NCBI GenBank assembly: GCA_046538375.1
Contig: JBKHJA010000002.1
Span: 1-54,807 of the forward strand
DNA: 54,807 nucleotides
Direction of reading: 5' to 3'
DNA from: Candidatus Aminicenantes bacterium
Lineage (GTDB): Bacteria > Acidobacteriota > Aminicenantia > Aminicenantales > Aminicenantaceae
Shown: positions 10,549-34,165 of the stretch, piece by piece
Layout of the letters: every line of letters starts with the position of its first letter
Numbering within the stretch: position 1 is the first letter of the stretch
Notes under the pieces: generated by a model
What the model was told of the DNA's origin: nothing
Database searches by the model: none
Seen by the model: the letters and a program-made list of their open reading frames with translations, nothing else
Translations under genes and position numbers: made by a program

Positions 10549-10606
10549 TGGTGGAGTTCAATCCTTTTGGCTTTTGCTTACGGGCCACAAGCTTTATGGT
10601 GCTAAA

Positions 10607-11728: not shown

Positions 11729-13860
11729 TTAATTTTCTTCCTCCCTTTCTTCTTGGATTCCTTGCTCTCTCTTTCCAGATCTTCCTGTTGAGAGAGTTCT
11801 CTGTCCATTTTTACGGCAACGAAATAACGTTCGGCCTTATCCTTGCCTGCTGGCTGCTGTGGGGTGGGGTGGGCAGCATCTCCGTCTCAAAGGCGAAGTT
11901 CGATACTGAAAAGCTCCCTTATATCTATTACGCCATTATTATTCTCTATCCTCTTTCCCTGGTGGGACTTCGATTTTCCCGCTTTATCCTGGGCCATCTT
12001 CCGGGAGAAATCACCGGTGTCATCTCCATCCTGATTTTCTCGTTTTCTGTCACCTTTTTGGTCAGCCTGCCGTTGGGAATGCTGTTTGTGTTCAATACTC
12101 ATTTCCAGAAAGGAAACCTTTCTCGAGTTTACTTCTTGGAGTCTGCTGGCTCAGCCTTTGCCGGATTGGTGGTATATCTTGTCTTTATCCCTGTCTTTCC
12201 CAACTGGAAAGGAGCGGCAATCATCGCTGCGTCAGCGGCTGTGCTTGTCTTTTTCTCTTTTGGAGAGAGAAAAAACAGGCTTTTCCTTATTTTTATACTC
12301 CTGTATTTAACTCTGTTCAGCCTGTTTGATTTTCCCAGCCAACAAATTTTCTGGAGGCCTTTCCATCTGGTAGAGAGCAGGGATACTCCTTATGGAAAAC
12401 TTCAAATCCTTAGAACTCAAGAACAGATCTCTTTGTATAACAACACTCTCATCAACTATTCCTACCCCAATCTTTCTGCTGCCGAGGAATCTGTTCATTT
12501 TGCTCTTCTTCAAAAGCCTGAAGCAGAAAGGGTGCTTTTGGTGGGAGGCGGGGTGGGAGGAAGTCTGGGAGAGGTCCTAAAATACCCTCACGCCCAAGTA
12601 GATTATGTGGAACTCAATCCTGAAATGATCCATCTCTCCCTGAAATACCTCCCTGAGGAAGAACGTCAAATTTTTGACGATCCGCGTGTTCAGACTTTTT
12701 ATCAAGACGGAAGAGCATTTCTGACTCAAGTCCAGAAAAAATATCAAGTGGTCATCCTCAACCTTCCTGAACCAGCCACAGCCCAGATCAACCGTTTCTA
12801 CACCAAAGAATTCTTTCTCCTGGTCAAAGAAAAGCTCACCTCAGGCGGAGTCTTTTCTTTCCGGGTCCCTTCTGCAGAGAATTATATCAGTGCTGAACTC
12901 CAAAATTTCCTTTCTTCGCTTTATTTCACCCTGAGAGAGGTTTTCCCCGAGGTCAAGATCGTGCCCGGAGATACCAATATCTTTTTGGCCTCCTCCTCTC
13001 CCCTGACCATAGACTCTGATAAACTCAGCCAGAGGATCATTGATCTGAACCTCCAGACTACCTATATCAGTCCCCATCTTCTCTTCTCACGACTCAATCC
13101 TCTCAGAATCAGCCTGTTGAAGGACGCTGTTTCTGAAGGAAGGAAAATCATAAACCTGGATTTTGTTCCCATAAGCTATTTCTACAGTTCTGTGTTATGG
13201 AGCAGCCAGTTTAGGGGTTTGGAGAAAAAAATATTTACCTTTTTGTCCCACCTGAGCCCTCGCTGGCTGCTTGACTTTCCCCTAGCTATTTTCCTCTGTA
13301 TTCTTGTTGTGTTGTGGATAGCCAGAAGAAGATCATCCTTTTTCCTGGTTCCTTTAGCGGTGATGGGTTTTACCACCATCGTTTTCGAAATCATGGTTAT
13401 CATTTCTTTCCAGACTATTTTTGGATATCTTTATCATAGAATCTCCCTTCTTCTTGCTTCCTTCATGATCGGGTTAGCAGCAGGCGCCCTGCGAGGGAAA
13501 AAAAGGAAAAAGTTTGATTTCACTCGCCTTCTGGTCATCCAATCTGGGTTCATACTGGTTGTTCTGCTCTTTTATGTGTGTCTACAAATTTCTCCTCCAG
13601 AAATATTGTTTTTTGTGTTTCTGTTTTCTGTCGGATTTCTGGGAGGTGATTTGTTTGTGGTTTCCAATCATCTTTTCCTAAAACTGAAAAAAAACTATGG
13701 TTTGGGTTACGGCTTGGATCTGCTGGGCTCTTTTTTGGGAGCTCTAGCCGCTTCTTCGTTCTTGATTCCGCTGGTGGGACTGCCCCTTTTGCTGAAATAT
13801 CTTTTTCTCTTTAACTCTTTTTGCTTTCTTTTTTTGGTGGGCGGCCTTGCAAGACGATGA
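11719..13860 (+). CDS. membrane-fused spermidine-synthase-like (aminopropyltransferase-fold) protein
   Basis: About 7 N-terminal and about 6 C-terminal hydrophobic helices flank a soluble domain with VLLVGGGVGGSLGEVLK...VDYVELNPEM. TTG start is uncertain. Confidence 0.75.
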   Translation: MGLINFLPPFLLGFLALSFQIFLLREFSVHFYGNEITFGLILACWLLWGGVGSISVSKAKFDTEKLPYIYYAIIILYPLSLVGLRFSRFILGHLPGEITGVISILIFSFSVTFLVSLPLGMLFVFNTHFQKGNLSRVYFLESAGSAFAGLVVYLVFIPVFPNWKGAAIIAASAAVLVFFSFGERKNRLFLIFILLYLTLFSLFDFPSQQIFWRPFHLVESRDTPYGKLQILRTQEQISLYNNTLINYSYPNLSAAEESVHFALLQKPEAERVLLVGGGVGGSLGEVLKYPHAQVDYVELNPEMIHLSLKYLPEEERQIFDDPRVQTFYQDGRAFLTQVQKKYQVVILNLPEPATAQINRFYTKEFFLLVKEKLTSGGVFSFRVPSAENYISAELQNFLSSLYFTLREVFPEVKIVPGDTNIFLASSSPLTIDSDKLSQRIIDLNLQTTYISPHLLFSRLNPLRISLLKDAVSEGRKIINLDFVPISYFYSSVLWSSQFRGLEKKIFTFLSHLSPRWLLDFPLAIFLCILVVLWIARRRSSFFLVPLAVMGFTTIVFEIMVIISFQTIFGYLYHRISLLLASFMIGLAAGALRGKKRKKFDFTRLLVIQSGFILVVLLFYVCLQISPPEILFFVFLFSVGFLGGDLFVVSNHLFLKLKKNYGLGYGLDLLGSFLGALAASSFLIPLVGLPLLLKYLFLFNSFCFLFLVGGLARR

Positions 13861-13874
13861 TTTTTTGAATTTCC

Positions 13875-13903
13875 TTGACAGGACTGCCAAATTATGTTTT
13901 ACT
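13875..13903 (+). promoter_or_regulatory. weak sigma70-like promoter candidate for the hdr-kor-frd operon
   Basis: TTGACA-N17-TTTACT, about 80 nt upstream of ATG 13983. Confidence 0.2.
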
Positions 13904-13982
13904 GAAAGGTAATTTTTTCCTTTACAAATCCTATCGCAGTTATAGGTATTTAAAATCCACATTCTCCGGAAAGAGCATTCAT

Positions 13983-14390
13983 ATGAGAATCAACATCTCA
14001 CAAAGAAAAATCAAAAATTCCTTTGTGGCTAAGGTCCAAGAACTGAGCGGCCAAAATCTTCTCGCCTGTTATCAGTGCGGCAAGTGTTCTGCTGGTTGTC
14101 CGGCTGTCTCAGAAATGGACATTCTTCCCAATCAAATCATCCGTTTTGCCCAACTGGGTTTTAAAGATGAGCTGCTTCGATCAAAGTCTATCTGGATCTG
14201 CGCCTCCTGTATGACCTGCAATGCCCGCTGCCCCAAGGGAATCAACATCGCTGAGGTCATCGAAGCCATCAGGCAAATTTTACTTCGCAAAAGGGAAGAC
14301 CATGTCAACATAGAAAAACTCTCTGATGAGCAAAAGAGAAATGTTCCTCCCATCGCTCTTGTCAGTAACTTCAGGAAATTTACTTCTTGA
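13983..14390 (+). CDS. hdrC: heterodisulfide reductase subunit C-like 4Fe-4S protein
   Basis: CYQCGKCSAGCP and CASCMTCNARCP motifs. Length is 135 aa from ATG 13983; the track begins at TTG 13875. Confidence 0.8.
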   Translation: MRINISQRKIKNSFVAKVQELSGQNLLACYQCGKCSAGCPAVSEMDILPNQIIRFAQLGFKDELLRSKSIWICASCMTCNARCPKGINIAEVIEAIRQILLRKREDHVNIEKLSDEQKRNVPPIALVSNFRKFTS

Positions 14391-14443
14391 TTCTATTGTC
14401 ATGACATACAACCTATTAATATCAAATCAAATAAGGAATCATA

Positions 14444-15322
14444 ATGAAAATAAGTTATTACCCCGGGTGTACGCTGAAAAACAATGCTAAAAATTTCGAA
14501 GAATCAACTTTTTGCTCCTTAAAACATCTGGGTGTGGAAGTGGAAGAGCTTCCACGCTGGAACTGCTGTGGAACAGTCTTTTCGTTAGCCACAGATGATT
14601 TGATTCATCATGTGGCTCCCATCCGGAACCTTCTTCGGGTCAAAGAATCCAACTCAGATCAAGTGATGACTCTCTGTGCCATGTGCTACAACACTCTAAA
14701 AAGAGCCAACCAGCGGGTGAAATCAGAGCCTGAAGATCTGGAGAAAATCAATAACTTCATGTACAGAGAAAATATCGAATATAAAGGCGATGTGAAGATT
14801 TTCCATCTTCTGGAGCTGCTCAGGGACAAAATCAAGTTTGAAAACATAGCTAAAAAAGTGGTCAAACCCCTAAAAAACTTAAAGGTGGCCAGCTATTACG
14901 GCTGCCTTTTGGTTCGTCCCAAAGAGGTGGGCTTCGACGATGTGGAAAACCCCACTATTCTGGAAAATCTTATCCGTGTCTTGGGTGCGGATCCCGTAGA
15001 TTTCCCTTATAAGACCGAATGTTGCGCCGCTTATCAAACCGTGGATAAGCCTGGTATGGTGGCTGAACGGACCTATCACATCCTCACCTCTGCCCAAGAC
15101 CAGGGAGCTGAGGCCGTAGCCTTGAGCTGTCCCTTATGTGCTTTCAACCTGGACCATAGGCAGAAAGAAACTTCCCAAAAATATCCGGAATTCAGGAATA
15201 TGCCTATCTTCTATTTCACGCAGCTTATGGCCATTGCCTTAGGCTGTTCAGAAAAGGATCTGAGATTTGATCTTCACTATATTGATCCCAAGCCTATTTT
15301 AAAAGAAAAGGGATTCATTTGA
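14444..15322 (+). CDS. hdrB: heterodisulfide reductase subunit B-like (two CCG domains)
   Basis: YYPGCT...NCCG and YYGCLL...ECCA...CPLC patterns of duplicated CCG domains. Length is 292 aa. Confidence 0.85.
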
Positions 15323-15329
15323 GGGACAA

Positions 15330-15605
15330 ATGGTTTATTTTGGCGATTTAAAACCTAAAAAAGGCAAAGTTCACATCAACAAAGATCGATGCAAAGGCTG
15401 CGGTTTCTGTGTGGAATATTGTCCGAAAGATGTCCTGGAGATGTCAGAGGAATACAATATAAAAGGATACCATCCTCCGTTTGTCAAGAATGAGGACGAA
15501 TGTCTGTACTGTCAACTGTGCGAGACCATATGTCCTGAATTTGCTATATCTGTCACTCCAAAGGAAGAGGAGGAACAAGGTGAAAAAAGTGAAAGCAGAC
15601 CCTAA
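15330..15605 (+). CDS. korD: 2-oxoacid:ferredoxin oxidoreductase delta subunit (2x[4Fe-4S] ferredoxin)
   Basis: [12 protein letters not shown] and [12 protein letters not shown]. Length is 91 aa. Directly precedes the alpha subunit. Confidence 0.75.
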
Positions 15606-16746
15606 AGGAGTGTTAACCGGAGCCCATTATCTGGATGGAGACTTCGCTCTAGCAGAAGGAGCTCTGGCTGCCGGTTGCCGCTTTTTTGCCGGCTATCCCA
15701 TCACTCCTTCCACTGAAACAGCAGAAAGGTTCTCAGAAAGGATTCCTGCTGTGGGAGGAGTGTTTATTCAGATGGAAGACGAGTTAGGATCCATGGCTGC
15801 CTTGATCGGGGCTTCTTGGGCAGGCAAGAAAGCCATGAGCGTGACTTCTGGGCCAGGTTTTTCCCTTATGATGGAAAATATCGGCTTGGCCTGCATGATG
15901 GAAACTCCGGTGGTGATCGCTAACGTCCAGAGAGGAGGCCCTTCCACCGGTCTTCCCACTCTCACTGGTCAGCAGGACATGATGCAGGTGAGATGGGGGT
16001 CTCACGGGGACTATGAAATCATCGCTCTCTCCCCCGACTCCCCTCAGGAATGTTTTGATCTTACTATCCAAGCTTTTAATCTCTCAGAAAAGTTTCGTGT
16101 CCCCACCTTTGTGATGACCGATGAATGCGTGGGGCATATGCATGAGAAAGTCATCATCCCACCTGCTGAAGAGATAGAACTGGTGGAAAGAAAATGGTAC
16201 ACAGGGCCCAAGGATAAATATCTTCCCTACAAACCAGATAAAGATATGATCCCTTTTATGGTTAAAGCCGGCGATGGCTACCGTTTCCACACCACTGGTT
16301 TAACCCATGATGAGCGGGGTTATCCGGAGATCAATGCCAAATATCAGGATTTTTGTGTGCGCCATTTGGTGGACAAGATCAAAAAGAATGCAGATAAAAT
16401 CATCAAAATCGAAGAGGATGAAACAGACGATGCTGAAGTCATTGTGATTTCCTACGGGATCACTTCGCGGGTGGCCATAAGAGCGGTTAAGAAAGCCAGA
16501 AAATCTGGCATCAAGGTGGGGACTGTAAGGCTCATCACTGTGTGGCCTTTTCCTGAGAAACGGATAAAAGAACTGTCCAAAAAAATAAAGGCCTTTATTG
16601 TTCCTGAAGTCAACTACGGCCAGATGGTATATGAAGCGGAACGATGCGCTGCCGGCAACTGCCCTGTTATCCATGTCCCCCACTGCGGAGGCTGGGTTCA
16701 TAATCCAGAAGACATACTTAAGGTCATTAAGGAGGGTTTAAAATGA
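15580..16746 (+). CDS. korA: 2-oxoacid (probably 2-oxoglutarate):ferredoxin oxidoreductase alpha subunit
   Basis: The GYPITPSTE motif lies about 40 aa from GTG 15580, which follows AAGGAAGAGGAGGAA. The part of the track ORF upstream of 15580 overlaps korD. D-A-B-G gene order matches Helicobacter oorDABC. Confidence 0.8.
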
Positions 16747-17606
16747 GAAAAGAAAAACCAGTTGAACAGAAGAGCCCTACAGAAAGTTTCTTGAGGATGG
16801 ACAGGATCCCTCATATTTGGTGTCCAGGGTGCGGCATAGGCGTGGTGGTCACCTCTTTTACCGAAGCCCTCCGCAAGAGCGAGATAGACCTTGACAAAGT
16901 GTCAGTGGTTTCAGGAATCGGCTGCACCGGACGGGTGGCAGGATATGTCAAACTGGACTCTTTTCACACCACCCACGGCCGGGCTGTGCCTTTTGCCACT
17001 GGATTGAAGCTTGGCAATCCGGATTTGAAGGTGGTTGTTTTCAGTGGAGATGGAGATATCGTGGGCATCGGGGGCAATCACTTTGTCCACGCTGCTAGAA
17101 GAAATATGGATATCGTGGTCATCTGTGTCAATAATTTTAACTATGCTATGACCGGAGGCCAGGTAGCAGCGACCACTCCTATCCAGGCCAATGCCTCTAC
17201 AGCTCCTTACGGAAATTTTGAATATCCCTTCAATCTCCCCTACCTTGCTGAGGCTTCAGGAGCAACCTATGTTGCCCGCTGGACTGCCCTCCATCTGAGA
17301 AGAGTGACCAAATCCATCCAGGAAGCTTTGAACAAGAGAGGTTTTTCTTTGATCGAGGTCATCACTCCCTGTGTCACCCTTTATGCGCGCAGGAACCGGC
17401 TGGGCGACGGGCTGAATCTGTTGAAATATTATTATGAAAAGTCTGAAATTCAGCACGGTGCCGACACCAAGACCCTGGATATCAGCTATCAGGGAAAACT
17501 CATCGTGGGTAAATTTGTGGACAAAGAAAAACCTACTTTTCTTGACGCCATGAATGAACATTTGGCCAAAGTTTTAGGCGAAAAATATCAAGCATATGGA
17601 GTGTAA
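16743..17606 (+). CDS. korB: 2-oxoacid:ferredoxin oxidoreductase beta subunit (TPP-binding)
   Basis: WCPGCGIG and SGDGD TPP/Mg motifs. Length is 287 aa. ATGA overlap with korA. Confidence 0.85.
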   Translation: MRKEKPVEQKSPTESFLRMDRIPHIWCPGCGIGVVVTSFTEALRKSEIDLDKVSVVSGIGCTGRVAGYVKLDSFHTTHGRAVPFATGLKLGNPDLKVVVFSGDGDIVGIGGNHFVHAARRNMDIVVICVNNFNYAMTGGQVAATTPIQANASTAPYGNFEYPFNLPYLAEASGATYVARWTALHLRRVTKSIQEALNKRGFSLIEVITPCVTLYARRNRLGDGLNLLKYYYEKSEIQHGADTKTLDISYQGKLIVGKFVDKEKPTFLDAMNEHLAKVLGEKYQAYGV

Positions 17607-17609
17607 ACC

Positions 17610-18197
17610 ATGAGTGAAATAAGGTTTTCTGGTTTTGGTGGACAGGGAATCATCCGCTGTGGCTTGATTACAGGGAAGGCTTTAGCCATCTATGAGGATA
17701 AACACGCCACCATGACTCAGAGTTTTGGCCCTGAAGCACGAGGCAGTGCCTGCAGCTCCCAACTGGTTGTCTCAGAGGACAGAGTCCTTTACCCTTACAT
17801 CGCCCGTCCAGAAATCCTGGTTTCCATGTCCCAGGAAGCCTATGATAAATACGAGCCTGAATTAAGAGAGGATGGACTTTTGATCATTGATAAAGATTTG
17901 GTCAAAGCACGGCCGGCACGGGGAAAAATAAAAATCTACGGCGTCCCCTCCACCAGATTCGCCGAGGAGCTGGGAAACAGGATCATCGCCAACCTGGTCA
18001 TGCTGGGTTTCTTTTCCTCAATCGCCAAAATCGTCTCTCCTGAAGCCATGAAAAAAGCTCTTCCTGGTTTGGTCCCTGATAGATTCGTCGATCTAAACAT
18101 CAAAGCCTTCGACAAAGGATACCAGTACGGGGAAGATCTTTTAGCCAAAGAAAAACAATCTAAAGCCAAGAAGTCAAAAAGCAAGAAAAGAAAATGA
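17610..18197 (+). CDS. korG: 2-oxoacid:ferredoxin oxidoreductase gamma subunit
   Basis: FSGFGGQGI motif. Length is 195 aa with a K-rich tail. Confidence 0.8.
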   Translation: MSEIRFSGFGGQGIIRCGLITGKALAIYEDKHATMTQSFGPEARGSACSSQLVVSEDRVLYPYIARPEILVSMSQEAYDKYEPELREDGLLIIDKDLVKARPARGKIKIYGVPSTRFAEELGNRIIANLVMLGFFSSIAKIVSPEAMKKALPGLVPDRFVDLNIKAFDKGYQYGEDLLAKEKQSKAKKSKSKKRK

Positions 18198-18249
18198 AAA
18201 AATAATTTCAAAATGCATAAACGGGAAAGCTCGTTATGAGAGGAAAAAA

Positions 18250-20196
18250 ATGAAACGGACTGGAGTATTTGTCTGCCACTGCGGCATCAACATTGCCGGC
18301 ACAGTGGATGTGAAGAAAGCGGCTGAAGAACTCTCTAAGAACAAAGGTGTGGTCCACGCTGAAGACTATGTGTACATGTGTTCTGATCCCGGCCAGAAGA
18401 TGATCATAGAATCCATCAAAGAAAATAATTTGGACAAAGTGGTGGTTGCCTGCTGTTCCCCCACTCTTCACGAGACTACCTTCAGGAATTGTGCCCAATC
18501 AGCGGGACTTAATACTTTCCAGTGTGAAATCGCCAACATCCGAGAACAGTGCAGCTGGGTCCATAAGGACATGGACAGGGCCACCAAAAAAGCCATAAAA
18601 ATCACCAAAGGCGCTGTGGAAAGAGTTCAACGAAATGAATCTCTGGATCCCATAGGCGTGCCTGTAACCCGGAGAGCTTTGGTTGTAGGGGGAGGAATCG
18701 CTGGGATCCAGTCTGCTCTGGACTTGGCCAACACAGGATTTGAAGTCATCCTGGTGGAAAAGTCTCCATCCATCGGCGGCCACATGATTCAGCTCTCCGA
18801 AACATTTCCCACTCTAGACTGCTCTCAGTGCATTTTAACTCCCAAGATGGTGGAGGTCTCCAAACATCCCAAGATTAAGCTCATGACCTGCAGCGAAGTC
18901 CAGGATGTCACTGGTTATGTGGGCAACTTCAAAGTCAAAATTCTCAAAAAGCCCACTTATGTGGATTCCGATAAATGCACTCTCTGTGATGAATGCACAA
19001 AAGTCTGTCCAGTGGTGGTTCCTGATGAATTCAATCTGGGCCTCAGCGGCCGAAGAGCCATCTACATTCCCTTCCCTCAGGCCATTCCTGCCACCTACAC
19101 TCTAGATATAAACAACTGCCCGGGGCTTCTTCCCATTGCCTGCGGAAAATGTGCCGAAGTCTGCGAGCCTGAAGCTATCGACTACGACATGAAGCCTGAA
19201 ATTGTGGAAGAAGATGTGGGCGCTATGGTGGTGGCCACTGGATATGACCTTTATGATAAAAAGGTGATGGCCGAGTACGGCTACGGAAAATACGACGATG
19301 TCCTGGATGGCCTTCAATTCGAAAGACTGTTATCTGCTTCGGGCCCCACTCAGGGTAAAATTCTCCGGCCTTCTGATCACAAGGAGCCAAAAGAAGTGGT
19401 TTTCATACAATGCGTGGGTTCCCGGGATCCAGAAATGCACTGTGCCTACTGCTCAAAGATCTGCTGCATGTACACAGCCAAACACGCCATGCTGTATAAA
19501 CATCACGTCCACGACGGCCAAGCTTATGTTTTTTATATAGACATCCGTTCTGGAGGCAAAGGATACGAAGAATTTGTCCAGAGGGCTGTGGAAGATGACG
19601 GAGTGGTCTATCTGCGGGGAAAAGTTTCTAAGATATTCGAAGAGAAAGGCAAAATTAAAGTCTGGGGTGTGGACACTCTCACTGGAAAAGATATCGAAAT
19701 TGATGCGGATATGGTGGTGCTGGCTATGGCCATGCGTCCCTCCAAAGGAGCGGAGGAACTGGCAAAAAAACTCAAACTGGCTGTGGACAAGGATGGCTTT
19801 CTCTCTGAAGCTCATCCCAAGCTCAGGCCTGTGGAGAGTGTTTCCTCTGGTTTATTCCTGGCCGGTGCTGCTCAAGCCCCAAAGGATATCCCTGAGGCTG
19901 TGGCTCAAGCCAGCGGAGCATCAGCCAAAGCCATAGCCATCTTGTCCCAGGAAAGACTCTTCCATGCTCCCACAGTGGCCCAGGTCAACCACAATCTCTG
20001 CACAGGGTGTGGAATGTGCGTCCATGTTTGTCCCTATGATGCTCTTTCCCTCAAAGACGGCAAAGTTGAAGTCAAGGAAGTCCTGTGCGAGGGCTGTGGA
20101 ACCTGTTCAGCCACCTGCTTACGGGCAGCCATCCAGGTTAGAAACTTTGCTCCTCAACAGATCCACGAAATGATAAAAGCATCTCTGGGAGGATAA
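18250..20196 (+). CDS. hdrA: heterodisulfide reductase subunit A-like FAD/FeS flavoprotein
   Basis: N-terminus MKRTGVFVCHCGINIAG, FAD fold VVGGGIAGIQSAL, and several CxxCxxCxxxCP ferredoxin motifs. Length is 648 aa. Confidence 0.9.
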   Translation: MKRTGVFVCHCGINIAGTVDVKKAAEELSKNKGVVHAEDYVYMCSDPGQKMIIESIKENNLDKVVVACCSPTLHETTFRNCAQSAGLNTFQCEIANIREQCSWVHKDMDRATKKAIKITKGAVERVQRNESLDPIGVPVTRRALVVGGGIAGIQSALDLANTGFEVILVEKSPSIGGHMIQLSETFPTLDCSQCILTPKMVEVSKHPKIKLMTCSEVQDVTGYVGNFKVKILKKPTYVDSDKCTLCDECTKVCPVVVPDEFNLGLSGRRAIYIPFPQAIPATYTLDINNCPGLLPIACGKCAEVCEPEAIDYDMKPEIVEEDVGAMVVATGYDLYDKKVMAEYGYGKYDDVLDGLQFERLLSASGPTQGKILRPSDHKEPKEVVFIQCVGSRDPEMHCAYCSKICCMYTAKHAMLYKHHVHDGQAYVFYIDIRSGGKGYEEFVQRAVEDDGVVYLRGKVSKIFEEKGKIKVWGVDTLTGKDIEIDADMVVLAMAMRPSKGAEELAKKLKLAVDKDGFLSEAHPKLRPVESVSSGLFLAGAAQAPKDIPEAVAQASGASAKAIAILSQERLFHAPTVAQVNHNLCTGCGMCVHVCPYDALSLKDGKVEVKEVLCEGCGTCSATCLRAAIQVRNFAPQQIHEMIKASLGG

Positions 20197-20621
20197 TGAT
20201 GGCGGAGAATTTTGAACCAAGAATCGTGGCCTTCCTCTGTAAGTGGTGTTCTTCAGCAGGCGCTGATTTCGCCGGTGTTTCCCGCATGCAATACCCTCCC
20301 AATGTGGTGCCCATCACGGTGATGTGCTCTGGAAGTGTATCCCCTCTTTATATTTTATCTGCCTTTAACAGAGGAGCTGATGGCGTTTTGGTTTCAGGAT
20401 GCCATCCCGGAGACTGCCATTATATAAAAGGAAACTACTATGCACGACGCCGAATCGCTTTGGTCAAGAAACTCCTGGAATACATGGGCCTTGAACCCCA
20501 GCGCTTCCAAATGTCCTGGGTTTCAGCAGCGGAGGGAACAAAATACACAGAGATCATAAAAGATTTCGTCAAGGAACTCAAGCCGCTGGGTCCCCAAAAG
20601 AAGCTGAGGAGTGATCTATAA
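20196..20621 (+). CDS. mvhD: MvhD/FlxD-like [2Fe-2S] protein (hydrogenase iron-sulfur subunit family)
   Basis: PRIVAFLCKWCSSAGADFAG...VMCSG...GADGVLVSGCHPGDCHY. TAATG junction with hdrA. Confidence 0.88.
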   Translation: MMAENFEPRIVAFLCKWCSSAGADFAGVSRMQYPPNVVPITVMCSGSVSPLYILSAFNRGADGVLVSGCHPGDCHYIKGNYYARRRIALVKKLLEYMGLEPQRFQMSWVSAAEGTKYTEIIKDFVKELKPLGPQKKLRSDL

Positions 20622-21652
20622 TGGTCAACCTTGATGAGTTGAAAGAAAACGCCAAAAAACTCCTGCAGGAAGGAAAAGTCAAATACGTTATCGGTTACAA
20701 GAGAAAAGCCAACGGCTTGATGCCAGTTCCTGCCTTCATCCACAAACCCCAAGATGTGGAGAAGTTCATCTGGGATCCGTCATGTGTTTATAACTTAACC
20801 CGCTATCTGGTGGACGAAAAGAGGAAAAAAGCAAGGGAAAAAGAACCAGATGAAAGGCCGGTAGCCCTGGTGGTTAAAGGCTGTGACAGCCGGGCCATCA
20901 ATGTTTTGCTCCAAGAAAAATTCATAGACCGAGATGAGATTTATCTCATCGGTATTTCCTGTGAAAATACCGGAATGGTGGATGAGAAAAAACTGGCCAC
21001 AAAGCTCAAAGGGAAGAAAGCCAAAAAGATCGAATTTGATGACCAGGATAATTTTGTGGTGACCACCCAGGAAGGCAAAACCAAGATCCCCGCCAAGGAG
21101 GTCATGGCCGATCGGTGCCTGGAATGTCCAGCCAATTTTCCTGTCGTTTATGATGTCCTCATCGGAGATAAGACAAAAAGAAAACCCGCTCCTCCCTTCC
21201 AATCTATACAAAAGATTGAATCCATGTCTGAACAGCAGAGATGGGATTTTTGGAAAGAACAGCTCGACAGATGCATCCGCTGCTATGCCTGCCGTTCTGC
21301 CTGCCCCATGTGCTACTGTGATGAATGTGTGGTGGACACCATAAATTTTGCTGTCACTGCAGACACCACTGCTGAAGAAAAAGCCCAAAAAATCAAATGG
21401 GTAGAAAAGTCTCCTGTTTTATCTGAAAATTTCGTGTATCATTTTGTCAGAGCTATCCATCTGGCAGGCCGCTGTGTGGACTGCGGCGAGTGTGAAAGAG
21501 CCTGCCCTCTAGATATTCCCATAAGATTTTTGAATAAAAAATTAGAGAAAGAAGCCAGTCAACTTTTTGGATATGATGTGGGCTTTGATCCCCAAAAACC
21601 CTCTCTAGTCTCCTGCTTCAAGGATGAGGACCCGGAGGATTTTATCAGGTGA
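20621..21652 (+). CDS. 4Fe-4S dicluster protein (Flx/FrhB-like electron-transfer subunit)
   Basis: CIRCYACRSACPMCYC and CVDCGECERACP motifs. Length is 343 aa. TAATG junction with mvhD. Confidence 0.7.
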   Translation: MVNLDELKENAKKLLQEGKVKYVIGYKRKANGLMPVPAFIHKPQDVEKFIWDPSCVYNLTRYLVDEKRKKAREKEPDERPVALVVKGCDSRAINVLLQEKFIDRDEIYLIGISCENTGMVDEKKLATKLKGKKAKKIEFDDQDNFVVTTQEGKTKIPAKEVMADRCLECPANFPVVYDVLIGDKTKRKPAPPFQSIQKIESMSEQQRWDFWKEQLDRCIRCYACRSACPMCYCDECVVDTINFAVTADTTAEEKAQKIKWVEKSPVLSENFVYHFVRAIHLAGRCVDCGECERACPLDIPIRFLNKKLEKEASQLFGYDVGFDPQKPSLVSCFKDEDPEDFIR

Positions 21653-21653
21653 A

Positions 21654-22697
21654 ATGATGGAAAAGATACTGGAAAAAAAATCTTTAACTTCATGGCTGAA
21701 AGAACTGGCGTCTTATGACATCTATGCTCCTGTTAAGGATGGTGATTTCTGGAAGTATGAACTCATCCGGGATCCAGATGAAATAGACCTTGATTATCTC
21801 AACACTGTCGTTTCTCCCAAAAAAATCATTTTCCCCCAAAGAGAGGTGCTGCTGGAATTTTTATCCTCAGATGAGGGCGGACCCCAGATCAAAGAACACC
21901 TTCCTGAGGAAAAGCCAACCCTTCTTTTTGGGGTCAGACCATGCGATGCCCGGGCTTTGTCTCTTACGGATAAAGTATTCGGGGGTGACTTTGTTGATCC
22001 TTACTACTGGAGAAGAAGAGACAAAACTGTTTTGGTGGGACTGGCCTGCAATACTCCTCCCTCTCCTGATTGTTTTTGTACTTCGGTGGATGGATCTCCT
22101 CACTCCAGCCAAGGATTAGATATCCTTTTGACTGACCTGGGAAAGAAATTTTTCCTGCAGTCCTTTACCGAAAAGGGAGACAAGCTGATCAGTTCCTCCA
22201 AAGAGATTTTTCAATCACCTGATGCAAAAGACAAAAAGGACCTGGAGAAGATCCACCAAGATTCAGAGAAAAAGGTTGAGCGTCATCTCCGACAGGTTAA
22301 AGACATCCCTCCCAAGCTGAAGAAAATGTTCGATTCTCCCTTCTGGGAACAAGAATCGCTGAGCTGCCTCCGCTGCGGCATCTGCACTTATCTCTGCCCC
22401 ACCTGTCACTGCTTTGACATCAACGATGAAGTGACCTCATCCTCTCCCATAAAAGGAAAAAGAGTAAGGACCTGGGATACCTGCCAGTTTCCTGATTTCA
22501 CCATGCACTCTTCGGGACATAATCCCAGGCCTGATAGAGCCTCCCGCCTGCGGCAGAGAATCATGCACAAATTTCAGTATTTTGTAGAGATCTACAATAA
22601 TTATCAATGCACTGGCTGCGGGAGATGCATTTCTAACTGCCCGGTGGGAATCGACATTATCGAAGTCCTTGATAAGGTGAAAGAATATGAATCATAA
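21654..22697 (+). CDS. 4Fe-4S dicluster protein (AsrA/FlxB-like)
   Basis: CLRCGICTYLCPTCHCFD and CTGCGRCISNCP motifs. ATG 21654 lies 1 nt after the preceding stop; the track ORF begins at 21624. Confidence 0.7.
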   Translation: MMEKILEKKSLTSWLKELASYDIYAPVKDGDFWKYELIRDPDEIDLDYLNTVVSPKKIIFPQREVLLEFLSSDEGGPQIKEHLPEEKPTLLFGVRPCDARALSLTDKVFGGDFVDPYYWRRRDKTVLVGLACNTPPSPDCFCTSVDGSPHSSQGLDILLTDLGKKFFLQSFTEKGDKLISSSKEIFQSPDAKDKKDLEKIHQDSEKKVERHLRQVKDIPPKLKKMFDSPFWEQESLSCLRCGICTYLCPTCHCFDINDEVTSSSPIKGKRVRTWDTCQFPDFTMHSSGHNPRPDRASRLRQRIMHKFQYFVEIYNNYQCTGCGRCISNCPVGIDIIEVLDKVKEYES

Positions 22698-23511
22698 TGT
22701 CTACGTTCCAAAACTGGCTGAAATAATCACCATCAAAGAGGAAGTGGGTGGGGCCAGACCCGTCAAGTCTTTTCGGACTCGTTTTATCAATAATAATGAA
22801 TTTACTTTCCGCTGCGGCCAGTGTGCTATGCTCTCTGTGTTCGGTAAAGGCGAATCCATGATATCCATCTCTTCCTCTCCACTTGTCAAGGATTACCTTC
22901 AATTCAGCATCCTCAAAATGGGAAGAGTGACCTCCGCTCTCCATGAAATGGTGGAAGGAGATATCATCGGAATAAGAGGTCCATACGGCAGTGGATTTCC
23001 CCTCCAGGAATGGAAGGGGAAAAACCTCATTTTTATCGGAGGAGGAATCGGCTTGGCTCCTATATGGTCTGTTCTGCAGACTGCCATAAATAAGAAAGAT
23101 GAATACGGAGACCTGGTGCTTTTCTACGGATCAAGGACATCCAAGGACCTTGTTTTCAGGGATGAGGTTGAGGAACTCAAGAATAAAATGGATGTTTATC
23201 TCTCCGTGGACGTGGAGGAACCAGGATGGGAAGAGTTCGTGGGTTTTGTACCTCAGAATGTCACCCAGAAGAAACCATCACCTGAGAACGCCATCGCAGT
23301 GACCTGTGGTCCTCCCATCATGATCAAGTTCGTTATCCAAGGCCTGAAAGAGCTGGGCTTCGATGATGAACAGATTTACACCACTGTAGAGAACAAGATG
23401 AAATGCGGGATAGGAAAGTGTGGACGATGCAACATCGGAATGCATTATGTGTGCAAAGATGGCCCTGTCTATTCCTGGGCTGAGCTAAAAAAGCTCCCTC
23501 AAGAATATTGA
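22687..23511 (+). CDS. FAD/NAD(P)-binding oxidoreductase with C-terminal [2Fe-2S] (AsrB/PyrK/FlxA-like)
   Basis: The ferredoxin-reductase-type fold has LIFIGGGIGLAPI and the C-terminal motif CGIGKCGRCNIG...CKDGPV. Overlaps the previous gene by 11 nt. Confidence 0.78.
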   Translation: MNHNVYVPKLAEIITIKEEVGGARPVKSFRTRFINNNEFTFRCGQCAMLSVFGKGESMISISSSPLVKDYLQFSILKMGRVTSALHEMVEGDIIGIRGPYGSGFPLQEWKGKNLIFIGGGIGLAPIWSVLQTAINKKDEYGDLVLFYGSRTSKDLVFRDEVEELKNKMDVYLSVDVEEPGWEEFVGFVPQNVTQKKPSPENAIAVTCGPPIMIKFVIQGLKELGFDDEQIYTTVENKMKCGIGKCGRCNIGMHYVCKDGPVYSWAELKKLPQEY

Positions 23512-23567
23512 CAAAATTTCAAACATGAACAAAACGATTCTTTGATTTTCCACCTGAGGAGGAAGAC

Positions 23568-24323
23568 ATGAAACAGAAAAAGAGCATTATGGACAGGATC
23601 GCAGAATCAAATAAATCTGTAACCACGGGAATTGATGAAAAGGATATCAAGTACTGGGTGACGATTTACATCATGGGAAAGTCTTATAAAGTTCCGGCTG
23701 GACTGACCATTATGCAGGCCATGGAGTTTGCTGGATACAGGTTTGTCAGATCTGCCGGGTGCAGGGCAGGATTCTGTGGGGCCTGTGCTACGGTTTACAG
23801 AAGAATTGGCGATTACAAACTCCAGACCGCCATGGCCTGCCAAACAAGAGCAGAAGATGGAATGTATTTGGTTCAAATACCTTTCTCACCCGCTGAGAAA
23901 GCTGTCTATGACATCAGCAAAGAAGAATTCAATGTAGGAACATTATTCAAATATTACCCTGAGCTGGCAAGGTGTGTATCCTGCAACACCTGCACCAAAT
24001 CCTGTCCTCAAGACCTGGAGGTCATGGATTATATCCAGTCGGCAATAAAAGGCGATTATAAAGCAGTGGCTGAGGAGTCCTTTGACTGCATTCAATGTGG
24101 ACTGTGTGCCATCAGATGTCCTTCCGAGCTGGTCCAGTATCATATTGCTCAGCTGGCCAGAAGAATGTACGGGCGCTATGAATGCCCGGAGCCCCCTCAT
24201 CTTGACAAAAGATTAAAAGAAATAAAAAAGGGAAAATATAAAGAAGACTGGAAAAACCTTCTCAAAGCTACAAAAAAAGAGCTCGAAAAACTGTATGCTG
24301 AGAGAGAAAGAGAGAAAGATTGA
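23568..24323 (+). CDS. succinate dehydrogenase/fumarate reductase iron-sulfur subunit-like protein
   Basis: GCRAGFCGACA is a [2Fe-2S] motif resembling SCR.GICGSC of SdhB/FrdB. It is followed by CVSCNTCTKSCP and CIQCGLCAIRCP. Length is 251 aa. Confidence 0.7.
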   Translation: MKQKKSIMDRIAESNKSVTTGIDEKDIKYWVTIYIMGKSYKVPAGLTIMQAMEFAGYRFVRSAGCRAGFCGACATVYRRIGDYKLQTAMACQTRAEDGMYLVQIPFSPAEKAVYDISKEEFNVGTLFKYYPELARCVSCNTCTKSCPQDLEVMDYIQSAIKGDYKAVAEESFDCIQCGLCAIRCPSELVQYHIAQLARRMYGRYECPEPPHLDKRLKEIKKGKYKEDWKNLLKATKKELEKLYAEREREKD

Positions 24324-24338
24324 TAAAGGAGGAGAGAA

Positions 24339-25997
24339 ATGTCTGAAATGAAATTTATCGGAGGCTATCCCCAATACATGCGGAAGCTCATAGATGTGGT
24401 GAATAAAACAAGAAGCAGGCGGAAAGACTACGAACCTCCTGCCATGAGTAAAAAGGAAAAAGAAGAGGTCCTTAAGCTCCATCCAGATTTTGCTGCTGGA
24501 GGGAAAAGAAAAATAAAAATAGGACAGAATAAAGGTGAGATTGGACCCAATGAAGTGGTGGATCTGCTGGAGGCCTATCCTCTTATAGAAAAAGGAGACA
24601 TTGACCTGTCTAAAATAGATCACGATGTTGATATTTTGATTATAGGAGGAGGTCTGGCAGGAACAACAGCGGCCATCTGGGCCAATAATCAGGGCATTCC
24701 GCCTGATAAAATTCTTCTTGCCAATAAATTAAGGCACGGGGATTCCAACTCCATGATGGCAGAGGGAGGAACTCAGGCGGCTGATCGTCCCAACGATTCC
24801 CCTCTCATCCACTACCTGGATGCATTGGGAGGAGGACATTTTGCCAACAAGCCCGATGTCCTCAAAGGGCTGGTTGAAGATGCTCCGTTCATCATGAGCT
24901 GGCTTTTAGAACTGGGGGCCATGATTGACAGAGAAGATGGCGGAAATTTTTCGGAAAAATGGGGTGGCGGCACCTGCAGAAAAAGAATGCATGCCTGCAG
25001 AGACTACACTGGCCTTGAGGAATTGAGGGTGATAAGAGACGAGTTCAGAAACAGGAAAATTTCGTGCTTGGAATACTATCCCGCTGTTGAACTTCTTAAA
25101 AACGGCCAGGACCAGGTGGCTGGAGCGGTTCTCTGGAATTTTGAAACAGGCGATTATAAAATCGTTAAAGCCAAAGCCACTATTCTGGCCACAGGCGGTT
25201 TTGGAAGGCTTCACATAAGAGGTTTCCCCACCACCAATCATTATGGGGCAACCTGTGACGGTGTGGTCCTCGCCTACCGCGCTGGAGCCAAGCTGAGAGA
25301 TGTGGACACCGTTCAATATCACCCCACCGGGGCTGCCTATCCACAGCAGATCATCGGTCTTCTTCTTACGGAAAAACTCAGGAGCATGGGAGCTCAGCCT
25401 GTAAATAAGGACGGAGAGGCCTTTGTTTTTCCTCTTGAACCAAGAGACGTGGAAGCCTCTGCCCTGATCAGAGAATGCTATGTGAGAGATAAAGGAATCA
25501 TTACTCCTACCGGGATGAGAGGTGTCTGGCTTGACACTCCCCTCATCGAAGTCAAAAATGGTGAAGGAACCATAGACAGCGCTTTTCCCGGAATGAGAAG
25601 GATGTTCAACCGGTTTGACATTGATATGCGGAAGGACCCGGTTCTCGTTTTCCCCACTCTCCATTACCAAAACGGAGGTGTGGAAACAGATCCTGAAGGA
25701 AAGACCACGGTGGAAGGACTGTTTGTTGCCGGCGAGATTTCGGGTGGCGTCCATGGAAAAAACAGACTCATGGGAAACTCAACTCTTGATTGCATGGTCT
25801 ACGGTCGAAGATCCGGGATCTATGCTGCGAAATATGCCAAAAAAACAAAGAAACGAGAAAAGCTTTCACTGGACCATATGAAAAAATATGTCAAAATGCT
25901 CAAACAGGCAGGAATCAAGCCCGAGAGAAGAGCACCCATTCTTCTGCCGGATTACAGAGGCAAAGCCGTATTGGCCAGGATGATTGATATCTTTTAA
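24339..25997 (+). CDS. FAD-dependent oxidoreductase of the fumarate reductase/succinate dehydrogenase flavoprotein family
   Basis: ILIIGGGLAGTTAA dinucleotide fold, plus VQYHPTG and PTLHYQNGGV motifs characteristic of FrdA/SdhA/NadB-type enzymes. Length is 552 aa with an N-terminal extension of about 90 aa. Confidence 0.75.
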   Translation: MSEMKFIGGYPQYMRKLIDVVNKTRSRRKDYEPPAMSKKEKEEVLKLHPDFAAGGKRKIKIGQNKGEIGPNEVVDLLEAYPLIEKGDIDLSKIDHDVDILIIGGGLAGTTAAIWANNQGIPPDKILLANKLRHGDSNSMMAEGGTQAADRPNDSPLIHYLDALGGGHFANKPDVLKGLVEDAPFIMSWLLELGAMIDREDGGNFSEKWGGGTCRKRMHACRDYTGLEELRVIRDEFRNRKISCLEYYPAVELLKNGQDQVAGAVLWNFETGDYKIVKAKATILATGGFGRLHIRGFPTTNHYGATCDGVVLAYRAGAKLRDVDTVQYHPTGAAYPQQIIGLLLTEKLRSMGAQPVNKDGEAFVFPLEPRDVEASALIRECYVRDKGIITPTGMRGVWLDTPLIEVKNGEGTIDSAFPGMRRMFNRFDIDMRKDPVLVFPTLHYQNGGVETDPEGKTTVEGLFVAGEISGGVHGKNRLMGNSTLDCMVYGRRSGIYAAKYAKKTKKREKLSLDHMKKYVKMLKQAGIKPERRAPILLPDYRGKAVLARMIDIF

Positions 25998-26006
25998 TAA
26001 TTCAAT

Positions 26007-26046
26007 CCACCCTCACCCCCCTATTATGGAAATGGAGATGCTTCCC
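26007..26046 (+). repeat. intergenic repeat family, copy D (CCACCCTCACCCCCCTATTATGGAAATGGAGATGCTTCCC)
   Basis: Same core as 1541, 7357, 9527 and 45681. Lies 9 nt after the flavoprotein stop and 20 nt before TTGACT at 26062. Confidence 0.7.
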
Positions 26047-26061
26047 TACCTCAAATTTTTT

Positions 26062-26089
26062 TTGACTTTTATACCTGATTTGTTATATT
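26062..26089 (+). promoter_or_regulatory. sigma70-like promoter candidate (extended -10) for the PilZ gene
   Basis: TTGACT-N16-TATATT, with TGT immediately upstream of the -10. About 120 nt before ATG 26213. Confidence 0.4.
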
Positions 26090-26212
26090 AATAAAAACTG
26101 GAAATATTATGGAGGGCGGGTAGAGGGAATGTCCACAGATATTCAAAACAATAATGACTGCTGTGAACACAAAACAAGGTATTGCTTCCAATAATCAACA
26201 GGGAGGTCAACA

Positions 26213-26650: not shown

Positions 26651-26680
26651 ATTTAATCCCCGAAAAAATCCTCCCGAATT

Positions 26681-31086: not shown

Positions 31087-31096
31087 CGGTGTTTGC

Positions 31097-32452: not shown

Positions 32453-32480
32453 GAAATCCAGTTTGGTTGGAAAAAGTCAG

Positions 32481-32867: not shown

Positions 32868-32961
32868 TCAATTCCTCCTCCTGACCGTTGAATCATTGAT
32901 GAAGGGTGAAGGGAGAAAATGAATTCTCCTGTTCACCCTTACTGATTATACTTCATCTTAG

Positions 32962-34053: not shown

Positions 34054-34165
34054 TTCCTCGTTTCTTTTAGAGTAATTTACTATCACATAATTTTCGATGA
34101 TGCAAGAAAAATCCCAGGGTGAGCCTTGTTCATAATCGGAAATTTGCTATAATTAAAAACCAATC

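Follow-up and report, generated by a model that had tools for sequence, protein, structure and literature searches.

A 13-gene operon for a predicted soluble redox system

We analysed a 54,807-nucleotide stretch of DNA from Candidatus Aminicenantes bacterium (contig JBKHJA010000002.1; hereafter the window), in which a run of 13 co-oriented open reading frames (ORFs) occupies positions 13983-25997 of the plus strand in the order hdrC-hdrB-korDABG-hdrA-mvhD(flxD)-flxC-flxB-flxA-frdB-like-frdA-like (Table 1). ORF listing, together with inspection of start codons and junctions, gave intergenic gaps of at most 56 nt, with overlap or abutment at six junctions. This agrees with an initial annotation of the same DNA, down to the ATGA shared by korA and korB, the TAATG at hdrA/mvhD and at the next junction, the 1-nt gap between two iron-sulfur (FeS) genes and the 11-nt overlap that follows. 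Its domain assignments hold as well: all 13 products have the expected domains in Pfam and NCBIfam, with complete cofactor motifs. The region is a genuine 13-gene operon, and its arrangement is not a matter of chance; the order from hdrB to frdA repeats in eight species-level genomes.

Start codons were taken as in-frame ATG or GTG with a purine-rich sequence upstream. For hdrC, the ATG at 13983 was preferred, the longest ORF beginning at TTG 13875. For korA, GTG 15589 is preceded by AGGAGG and was used, with GTG 15580 as a possible alternative; the longest ORF opens at TTG 15481. For flxB we used ATG 21654; ATG 21624 would instead create an overlap with flxC. Scans for sigma-70 promoters and intrinsic terminators across 11500-27000 gave the level seen in shuffled sequence, and thus neither support nor contradict a single transcript.

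The system is predicted to be soluble. None of the 13 products matches an Sdh/Frd C/D, HdrE or NarI-type family in Pfam or NCBIfam, and Kyte-Doolittle plots show no transmembrane-like segment in any of them save for one marginal stretch in KorG. The cluster therefore lacks the membrane anchor of a complex II, as the initial annotation had stated.

Table 1. Genes of the operon, with the distance from each to the next (negative values are overlaps)
Gene	Coordinates	Strand	Product	Gap to next gene
hdrC	13983..14390	+	135 aa, two [4Fe-4S]; Pfam Fer4_8/Fer4_17	53 nt
hdrB	14444..15322	+	292 aa, two CCG domains; Pfam CCG x2	7 nt
korD	15330..15605	+	91-aa delta subunit, two [4Fe-4S]; Pfam Fer4 x2	-17 nt
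korA	15589..16746	+	alpha subunit, 2-oxoacid:ferredoxin oxidoreductase; Pfam POR_N, PFOR_II	-4 nt (ATGA)
korB	16743..17606	+	thiamine pyrophosphate-binding beta subunit; Pfam TPP_enzyme_C	3 nt
korG (korC)	17610..18197	+	gamma subunit; Pfam POR; NCBIfam PRK08537 200 bits, OorC 90 bits	52 nt
hdrA	18250..20196	+	648-aa flavoprotein, FAD + 6x[4Fe-4S]; putative bifurcation site	-1 nt (TAATG)
mvhD/flxD	20196..20621	+	141-aa [2Fe-2S] connector; Pfam FlpD 182 bits	-1 nt (TAATG)
flxC-like	20621..21652	+	343-aa FeS protein; Pfam FrhB_FdhB_C and two 4Fe-4S motifs	1 nt
flxB-like	21654..22697	+	347-aa FeS protein, HydB/ShyB/AsrA type; Pfam Fer4_22 115 bits	-11 nt
flxA-like	22687..23511	+	274 aa, FAD/NAD(P)H-binding, [2Fe-2S]; Pfam NAD_binding_1 and DHODB_Fe-S_bind	56 nt
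frdB-like	23568..24323	+	251 aa, one [2Fe-2S] and two [4Fe-4S] motifs; Pfam Fer2_4 and 4Fe-4S dicluster	15 nt
frdA-like	24339..25997	+	552-aa flavoprotein, fumarate-reductase type; Pfam FAD_binding_2 only	

The Hdr, Flx and Kor subunits

By Pfam, NCBIfam and cysteine motifs, the operon encodes the complete FlxABCD-HdrABC subunit set. HdrA matches the HdrA2 family at 840 bits over profile positions 1-640, and in phmmer its residues 3-643 align with residues 5-647 of the structurally characterised bifurcating protein 5odc_A (738 bits). Its 32 cysteines include four CxxCxxCxxxC-type sets, and the N-terminal cluster, the TrxR-like FAD (flavin adenine dinucleotide) domain and the inserted and C-terminal ferredoxin domains of a bifurcating HdrA are all present, with their cluster ligands. 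MvhD/FlxD matches VhuD, and also HdrA2 over the MvhD portion at the C-terminus of that profile. The best NCBIfam matches of HdrC are to HdrC (TIGR03290) and to QmoC, the latter confined to the soluble N-terminal 110 residues of the profile, and its two CxxCxxCxxxCP motifs lie at C29-C39 and C73-C83. HdrB aligns over its full length with the methanogen proteins 7bkb_B and 5odc_B, the HdrB of 7BKB being its best structural-sequence match; it scores 188 bits against the HdrB family, short of the equivalog cutoff of 345, and 169 bits against SdhE. Both of its CCG motifs (CX31-38CCX34-35CXXC) are complete, at C9/C41-C42/C78xxC81 and C154/C193-C194/C229xxC232, although the spacer of 34 in the second is shorter than the 35-36 of the reference motif, CX31-39CCX35-36CXXC.

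Among the Flx-type subunits, FlxA is HydG/ShyC/AsrB-like in NCBIfam and carries the motif C240x4C245xxC248...C256. FlxB scores 206, 196 and 143 bits against ShyB, HydB and AsrA, respectively. FlxC has no NCBIfam family match; a colinear homologue with 35% identity occurs in a cluster from Clostridia (locus L083, below).

The four Kor subunits lie nearer to Kor/Oor than to Por, Vor or Ior proteins. KorA exceeds the cutoff of the generic Kor-type alpha family (PRK08659, 567 bits against 411) and scores 381 bits against OorA, 296 against VorB, 115 against PorA and 63 against IOR; its best PDB matches are 1yd7, 8ys5 (2-oxoglutarate synthase) and 6n2n (2-oxoglutarate ferredoxin oxidoreductase, OGOR), with PFOR at just 59 bits. 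KorB matches the OGOR beta family at 234 bits versus about 68 bits for PorB/VorB-beta, and KorD, with eight cysteines in two CxxCxxCxxxCP motifs, matches OGOR_delta and OorD best. Profile scores and structural matches thus place KorDABG in the Kor/Oor lineage and well apart from the Por, Vor and Ior enzymes. Its substrate is probably 2-oxoglutarate; the scores fall below the specific equivalog cutoffs (OorA 579, OGOR-beta 364, OGOR_delta 125 bits).

The FrdBA-like pair has an FrdA/SdhA-type active site

The two terminal genes are predicted to encode a soluble catalytic pair of fumarate-reductase type with non-covalently bound FAD. FrdA-like is best matched by TfrA in NCBIfam (288 bits, profile positions 7-421 of 546, cutoff 718), followed by the SdhA/FrdA and NadB profiles at 245-256 bits. 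These matches span only the FAD and capping domains, and there is no match to the C-terminal domain Succ_DH_flav_C (PF02910). FrdB-like matches TfrB weakly, over profile positions 19-181, and lacks a CCG domain. It carries a plant-type 2Fe-2S motif (C65x4C70xxC73...C91) and two complete CxxCxxCxxxCP motifs; as both of these have four cysteines, there is no 3Fe-4S-type motif, and the N-terminal domain is Fer2_4 rather than the SdhB-type Fer2_3.

We aligned FrdA-like in MAFFT with E. coli SdhA, FrdA and NadB and seven family members of 50-75% identity, and assessed conservation in a family alignment of 35 sequences. Residues H328, T344, E345, R348, R369, H442 and R476 correspond to SdhA H242, T254, E255, R258, R286, H354 and R399. 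The dicarboxylate-binding and catalytic residues of the class, including the proton-donor arginine, are thus all in place, and all are invariant in the family. HMMER pairwise alignments had variously placed the proton donor at R369, R378 or R383; MAFFT with the family members included gives R369. At the site of the histidine that binds FAD covalently (H45 in E. coli SdhA, and the FrdA histidine), FrdA-like has Asn137. This asparagine recurs in 7/7 aligned family members and is invariant across the 35 sequences. Non-covalently bound FAD suits an enzyme that reduces fumarate better than one that oxidises succinate. In the column of NadB E121, which we take to be the amino-group ligand, the family has Gly, Phe or Ala and no Glu. 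An AlphaFold2 model built from alignment rows of at least 76% identity was poor (predicted local distance difference test score 63, predicted template modelling score 0.66); Foldseek returned E. coli FrdA and M. smegmatis Sdh1 as its top matches, which speaks for the general FrdA/SdhA fold only.

Three familiar identities for the pair were considered and rejected. It is not a complex II, having no anchor, no covalent-FAD histidine, no 3Fe-4S-type motif and no PF02910 domain. It is not a canonical TfrAB, as FrdB-like has no fused CCG domain and TfrA scores 288 bits against a cutoff of 718. Nor is FrdA-like a NadB, as it lacks an E121-type glutamate and its gene adjoins that of an FeS subunit; NadB is monomeric and is not known to have an FeS partner.

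Two further features of frdA-like were seen. Residues 1-95 (window 24339-24620) form a cysteine-free N-terminal extension of ~95 aa, conserved in homologues down to ~50% identity, including those of Clostridia. A 282-aa antisense ORF (24906-25754, minus strand) lies wholly within the gene and is most likely spurious.

The cluster in related genomes

FrdA-like has thousands of homologues, the closest named ones, at 86-88% identity, from Candidatus Aminicenantes. We scanned one genome per species, which gave 80 loci with an frdBA-like pair, fetched flanks of ~10 kb and mapped the window proteins onto them. The bacterial loci come from Aminicenantes, WOR-3, Stahlbacteria, TA06, Aerophobetes, Sumerlaeota, Cloacimonadota, Planctomycetota, Omnitrophota, Clostridia and others, and the archaeal ones include Bathyarchaeia, Thorarchaeota and Thermoplasmatota. 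The constant unit is frdB-frdA: an frdB-like gene adjoins frdA-like in 73/80 loci, and the remaining loci are truncated.

Gene order is conserved around this unit. Twelve of the 13 genes, from hdrB to frdA, stand as in the window in eight genomes, with hdrC falling outside the fetched 10-kb flank. In the 46 loci with at least 9 kb of upstream sequence, we found hdrB in 28, hdrA in 27, mvhD in 22, korAB in 16, flxAB in 9 and mvhAG in 6; additional mvhAG genes lie downstream of the pair in other loci. Nesting of kor between hdrCB and hdrA occurs in 16 genomes, with an internal kor order that varies (DABG or ABGD), and among the 23 kor-containing loci hdrA directly follows kor in 17 and hdrB directly precedes it in 16. 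The order hdrC-hdrB-frdB-frdA is found in 13 of the 35 loci that contain hdrB. Next to kor and frd, sucCD occurs in six loci (L009, L022, L052, L070, L075 and L081).

The predicted electron input varies. The flxCBA genes are present in the window and in 11/80 loci, and a MvhGA [NiFe] hydrogenase takes their place in WOR-3, Planctomycetia, Omnitrophota, Thorarchaeota and others. Thus, the Planctomycetia/Omnitrophota order is (suc)-hdrCB-korABGD-hdrA-mvhD-frdBA-mvhGA, and a WOR-3 contig (L081) reads hdrA ... mvhD-mvhG-mvhA ... hdrC-hdrB-frdB-frdA ... sucC-sucD-kor. An HdrA-centred bifurcating platform would be expected to allow such exchange of Flx for Mvh. As judged from these gene sets, the system comprises an HdrA-MvhD-HdrCB platform with Flx (NAD(P)H) or Mvh (H2) as its predicted input and the FrdBA-like pair as its predicted output. 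In relatives, the genes beside the cluster (sucCD, kor and genes for a fumarase and a dicarboxylate exporter) suggest that the metabolites involved are fumarate, succinate and 2-oxoglutarate.

Locus L083, from Clostridia, consists of a Rex-like gene, a class II fumarase gene (fumC), hdrB-hdrC-hdrA-mvhD-flxC-flxB-flxA-frdB-frdA and an Asp-Al_Ex exporter gene, and its nine non-kor proteins are all colinear with those of the window at 35-54% identity. The Rex-type regulator (759-1412; Put_DNA-bind_N and CoA_binding domains), directly before the fumarase-Hdr-Flx-Frd cluster, hints at control by the NADH/NAD+ ratio.

Several other observations concern the relatives. Between distant bacterial phyla and archaea (Bathyarchaeia, Hecatellales), FrdA-like retains 70-88% identity, while the neighbouring HdrB in those distant lineages has only 47-62%; this suggests strong constraint, horizontal transfer of the frdBA-like pair, or both. 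Five loci (L008, L012, L022, L057 and L081) hold two tandem korAB-like pairs before korG and korD (korA korB korA' korB' korG korD), or with korD between, which suggests two 2-oxoacid:ferredoxin oxidoreductase (OFOR) specificities that use common small subunits. The frdA-like gene of a Christensenellaceae metagenome-assembled genome (L080, locus positions ~447-449) contains an in-frame stop, which may reflect decay to a pseudogene, an error in sequencing or recoding. Finally, a PF05635 gene ('23S rRNA intervening sequence protein') at 2947-3351 of L081 lies within the Hdr-Mvh-Frd cluster, with hdrA on one side and mvhD on the other.

Relation to published systems

The cluster type and its proposed function are not new. 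Rubin-Blum et al. 2019 (PMC6315080) described it in tubeworm symbionts (Ca. Endoriftia and the Escarpia laminata symbiont) and in Thioflavicoccus mobilis, with a model in which NADH is bifurcated and electrons pass to fumarate reductase and, via ferredoxin, to OGOR; horizontal transfer was also postulated. The cluster has been described as 'rare' in Gammaproteobacteria. The order in their Table S1 is frdB, frdA, hdrC, hdrB, korD, korA, korB, korC, hdrA, flxD, flxC, flxB, flxA, aclB, aclA and further genes. Compared by gene order, the window has the same 13 gene types and an identical 11-gene core from hdrC to flxA: co-oriented flxABCD, hdrABC, four-subunit kor and anchor-less frd/tfr genes, with kor between hdrBC and hdrA. 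Only the position of frdBA differs, upstream of hdrC in the symbionts and downstream of flxA here. The symbiont cluster also runs on into aclBA, idh and rubrerythrin, whereas the window cluster is flanked by housekeeping genes, and its hosts are sulfur-oxidising gammaproteobacterial autotrophs, whereas the host of the window is Aminicenantes-like and presumably an anaerobic heterotroph.

Later work has extended this picture. Mitchell et al. 2024 (PMC11636981) found the cluster to be co-expressed, including its intergenic regions, and have Kor between HdrA and HdrBC. Williams et al. 2021 (PMC8542988) reported a TFR-OGOR-fumarase-SCS-Mvh-Hdr cluster in Cloacimonadota, and a 2026 survey (PMC13147460) summarises the hypothesis. 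Koendjbiharie and co-workers (PMC7282089) proposed a Flx-Hdr-linked ferredoxin-reducing fumarate reductase for Pseudoclostridium thermosuccinogenes, a succinate producer in which the 'succinate operon' is up-regulated. The published description of that operon matches L083 gene for gene. It shares hdrA-mvhD-flxC-flxB-flxA-frdB-frdA with the window and differs in having no kor, in the order hdrB-hdrC, and in the Rex-like and fumarase genes before it and the dicarboxylate exporter after it. Our literature search found no paper on this cluster in Aminicenantes. The initial annotation knew of no characterised complex that also includes Kor and HdrA-MvhD, and so implied novelty; the same cluster and model are in fact in PMC6315080, PMC11636981 and PMC13147460. 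The proposed mechanism was published in 2019, and the window is an Aminicenantes member of a known, biochemically uncharacterised cluster type.

Several known enzymes resemble parts of the operon. Methanothermobacter TfrAB (Heim et al. 1998) shares a soluble, anchor-less flavoprotein, a 2Fe-2S + 4Fe-4S dicluster FeS subunit and a CCG module. However, the CCG domains are fused within TfrB, whereas in the window they stand on a separate HdrB, with HdrC as an extra subunit; TfrA has the C-terminal domain and no N-terminal extension, the reverse of FrdA-like; and CoM-SH and CoB-SH are not expected in the window bacterium. The five-subunit enzyme of Hydrogenobacter thermophilus, as described in PMC13147460, is likewise soluble and NADH-linked, has FrdA and FrdB homologues and serves the reductive tricarboxylic acid (TCA) cycle, but has only five subunits, with no HdrA, MvhD or Flx, and is a plain, irreversible NADH-dependent reductase that is not coupled to ferredoxin. 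The MvhAGD-HdrABC complex of hydrogenotrophic methanogens (PDB 5ODC) has full-length homologues of HdrA, HdrB, HdrC and MvhD, and MvhAG serves as the predicted donor in relatives of the window cluster. In the window the donor would be Flx, with NAD(P)H, and not a hydrogenase, and the acceptor is probably fumarate via FrdBA, not CoM-S-S-CoB.

All seven subunit types of Desulfovibrio vulgaris FlxABCD-HdrABC are present in the window, where the genes run in the opposite order, kor interrupts them and the acceptor module is an FrdBA-like pair. For the D. vulgaris system, Ramos and colleagues reportedly proposed in 2015 that DsrC is the acceptor and alcohol dehydrogenase the partner.

A proposed bifurcating Flx-Hdr-Frd enzyme that would supply ferredoxin to Kor

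Based upon the subunit set, the active-site residues and the comparative data, we regard with moderate confidence a bifurcating Flx-Hdr-Frd enzyme feeding ferredoxin to Kor as the best available explanation of the operon. It would be a soluble, anchor-less redox system of two enzymes on one ferredoxin pool. NAD(P)H would reduce the FAD of the FlxA-like subunit, and electrons would be relayed by FlxA, FlxB and FlxC, through their FeS clusters, to the [2Fe-2S] cluster of MvhD/FlxD and on to the FAD of HdrA, which would split each pair. The high-potential electron would travel through the two [4Fe-4S] clusters of HdrC and the two non-cubane clusters of HdrB to FrdB-like ([2Fe-2S] and two [4Fe-4S]) and would end at the non-covalently bound FAD of FrdA-like, where fumarate would be reduced to succinate. 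The low-potential electron would leave by the ferredoxin-like domains of HdrA to ferredoxin. KorDABG would most likely use reduced ferredoxin to carboxylate succinyl-CoA to 2-oxoglutarate, in a reductive TCA branch that makes 2-oxoglutarate and glutamate or forms part of a reductive TCA cycle. The drop from NAD(P)H (-320 mV) to fumarate (+30 mV) offers enough energy to drive ferredoxin reduction. This is the wiring that the initial annotation had drawn. It is consistent with the cofactor motifs, the FrdA-type site, the Kor/Oor placement and the synteny; its novelty did not stand, as the 2019 paper (PMC6315080) precedes it.

The path between HdrA and fumarate could be direct or could pass through a free thiol. 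Only one CCG protein, HdrB, is encoded in the cluster, and FrdB-like has no CCG domain. The parts of TfrB are in effect divided between FrdB-like (profile positions 19-181) and HdrB (positions 262-473, the CCG part), and with hdrC-hdrB-frdB-frdA contiguous in 13/35 loci, HdrCB and FrdBA appear to behave as a split Tfr-like unit. With just one CCG site where a free thiol loop requires two, direct transfer from HdrA through HdrC, HdrB and FrdB to FrdA is the simplest reading.

Several points weigh against this explanation. FrdA-like is below every NCBIfam cutoff, and sequence does not pin down which substrate Kor uses (OorA 381 bits against 579). We looked in the window for sucCD, fumarase and ATP-citrate lyase and found none of them. 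At least 28/80 loci, mostly in WOR-3/Stahlbacteria, have the frdBA-like pair alone with no Hdr within 10 kb, so that Hdr is not its obligate neighbour, and four Aminicenantes-type loci (L010, L017, L018 and L055) keep hdrCB-kor-hdrA-(mvhD)-frdBA without flxCBA, so that NAD(P)H input is not universal. HdrB, with both CCG motifs complete, is compatible with a thiol/disulfide intermediate. The reference FlxABCD-HdrABC itself is known from genetic and physiological evidence, and literature searches found neither a characterised bifurcating fumarate reductase nor a biochemical demonstration for any homologue. In Endoriftia, moreover, tfrAB departs from the common expression pattern of the cluster (PMC11636981).

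We also considered, as an unlikely elaboration by analogy, that Kor is the docked CO2-fixing module of a Flx/Mvh-Hdr-Frd supercomplex, in which the low-potential electron would pass from the ferredoxin-like domains of HdrA directly to KorD. The Fdh-Hdr-Fmd supercomplex of Methanospirillum hungatei (PDB 7BKB) is a case of an Hdr bifurcation module physically fused to a ferredoxin-dependent CO2-fixing enzyme. Its CO2-fixing partner, however, is formylmethanofuran dehydrogenase, reached through a polyferredoxin wire, and no such wire exists for Kor in the window. The nesting of kor between hdrCB and hdrA in 16 genomes despite varying kor order is compatible with docking but does not show it. A particle of this kind would couple fumarate reduction to succinyl-CoA carboxylation with no diffusible carrier.

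If a bifurcating Flx-Hdr-Frd enzyme is indeed encoded, fumarate would become one of the few high-potential acceptors known to power bifurcation at a flavin. This would explain how the large amount of energy released between NAD(P)H or H2 and fumarate is conserved in anaerobes without quinone-linked fumarate reductases; the low-potential ferredoxin for 2-oxoglutarate synthase would be made meanwhile, and a reductive TCA branch would become cheaper. The contribution of the window is one of breadth rather than of concept: Aminicenantes-like genomes share the core gene order of the published cluster, and the frdBA-like core occurs in numerous uncultured phyla, bacterial as well as archaeal, where Flx and Mvh inputs can replace one another. 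The donor in the horizontal transfer that was proposed in 2019 may be among these lineages, and more sequences are now available from which to choose for expression work. New here are the argument for fumarate reduction from individual residues, that for direct wiring from the single CCG protein, and the survey of modular donors and phyletic spread.

Alternative explanations

Aminicenantes are generally described as fermentative heterotrophs, and Kor could run oxidatively, from 2-oxoglutarate to succinyl-CoA. The same Flx-Hdr-Frd enzyme would then serve amino-acid or dicarboxylate fermentation with fumarate as a sink for NAD(P)H and no reductive carboxylation, and both enzymes would supply reduced ferredoxin to Rnf or a hydrogenase, thus conserving energy. 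The absence of ATP-citrate lyase and sucCD from the window would fit, as would the fermentative setting of the Clostridia homologue, a 'succinate operon' with fumarase and exporter genes, and the peptidase and glutamate dehydrogenase genes that adjoin frdBA in L024. However, kor lies inside the hdr genes in 16 genomes, suggesting a tighter link than shared regulation, autotrophic symbionts carry the cluster together with aclAB and idh (PMC6315080), and the Cloacimonadota cluster was read as part of a reductive TCA cycle (PMC8542988). As OFORs are reversible, direction is not decidable from sequence; on balance we find oxidative operation rather unlikely.

A second possibility, modelled on methanogens, is that the two halves of the system are not hard-wired. 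Flx-HdrABC would reduce a soluble or protein-borne disulfide (of a DsrC-like protein, a lipoyl protein or a low-molecular-weight thiol), and a separate thiol:fumarate reductase would re-oxidise the thiol. The intact pair of CCG motifs in HdrB is typical of disulfide-reducing HdrB, and TfrA is the best NCBIfam match of the flavoprotein. Yet the single CCG protein leaves FrdB-like without the domain that TfrB uses for thiol oxidation, hdrCB directly adjoins frdBA in 13 loci, and no DsrC, TusE or lipoyl-carrier gene was found in the window, L081 or L083, nor among the window-derived gene queries across the 80 loci. We therefore consider thiol-mediated coupling decidedly improbable.

It is very unlikely that the flavoprotein pair acts on something other than fumarate, as an L-aspartate oxidase-like enzyme or another enoate/2-enoate reductase that feeds or drains the Hdr module. 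The profile scores do little to separate these classes (NadB 245 vs FrdA/SdhA 256 bits, all under cutoff), the flavoprotein lacks the C-terminal domain and has a unique N-terminal extension, and in L044 the pair stands alone beside glycine-cleavage genes. Nevertheless, the FrdA/SdhA dicarboxylate ligands are all invariant, the NadB-specific Glu position is Gly, Phe or Ala, a dedicated FeS subunit is always adjacent, and fumarase, sucCD and dicarboxylate exporter genes are neighbours in relatives.

Least probable of all, and hardly to be expected, is the confurcating direction that the initial annotation had left as an option, a soluble answer to the difficult succinate-oxidation step in anaerobes in which reduced ferredoxin from 2-oxoglutarate oxidation would pull succinate oxidation to yield NAD(P)H (or H2 where Mvh is the input). 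Flavin-based bifurcation can in principle run backwards, and Kor and Frd are encoded together, but the covalent-FAD histidine is Asn in every family member, and in E. coli Frd/Sdh loss of covalent FAD abolishes succinate oxidation. Thermodynamics disfavours it as well, since the mean of the succinate/fumarate (~+30 mV) and ferredoxin (~-450 to -500 mV) midpoint potentials lies well above those of NAD+/NADH (-320 mV) and H+/H2 (-414 mV), which makes confurcation unfavourable except at extreme ratios.

Flanking genes

The genes on either side of the operon are unrelated to it. Upstream lie ribF, pyr genes, rnc, a GGDEF regulator, a radical-SAM gene and a membrane-fused spermidine-synthase-like gene; downstream lie a PilZ gene, glyQS, glycine-cleavage genes, argS and an ABC transporter. 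A second Hdr set was looked for in the window and none was found.

Directly upstream of hdrC, at 10523-13860, an AmmeMemoRadiSam-type radical SAM gene overlaps the gene for a 713-aa polytopic membrane protein with a spermidine-synthase domain. The trio that these two genes form with hdrC is syntenic in the Aminicenantes loci L010, L017 and L018 and not in other phyla. The 713-aa protein was considered as a membrane anchor for the cluster and rejected, being a spermidine-synthase-like fusion that is syntenic within Aminicenantes only.

Downstream of frdA-like, a PilZ-domain gene occupies 26213-26650, with a promoter-like site at 26062-26089. PilZ genes also adjoin the cluster in related Aminicenantes loci, where they are at times duplicated or inverted. 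Further on, ~4-8 kb downstream of the cluster, gcvPB, gcvPA and gcvT lie on the minus strand at 29620-34086. In L044 (WOR-3), gcvT-gcvH-gcvPA (11666-14516) come right after the stand-alone frdBA-like pair on the same strand, with a gap of 7 nt. The proximity of glycine-cleavage and frdBA-like genes may be a coincidence or may reflect a functional link.

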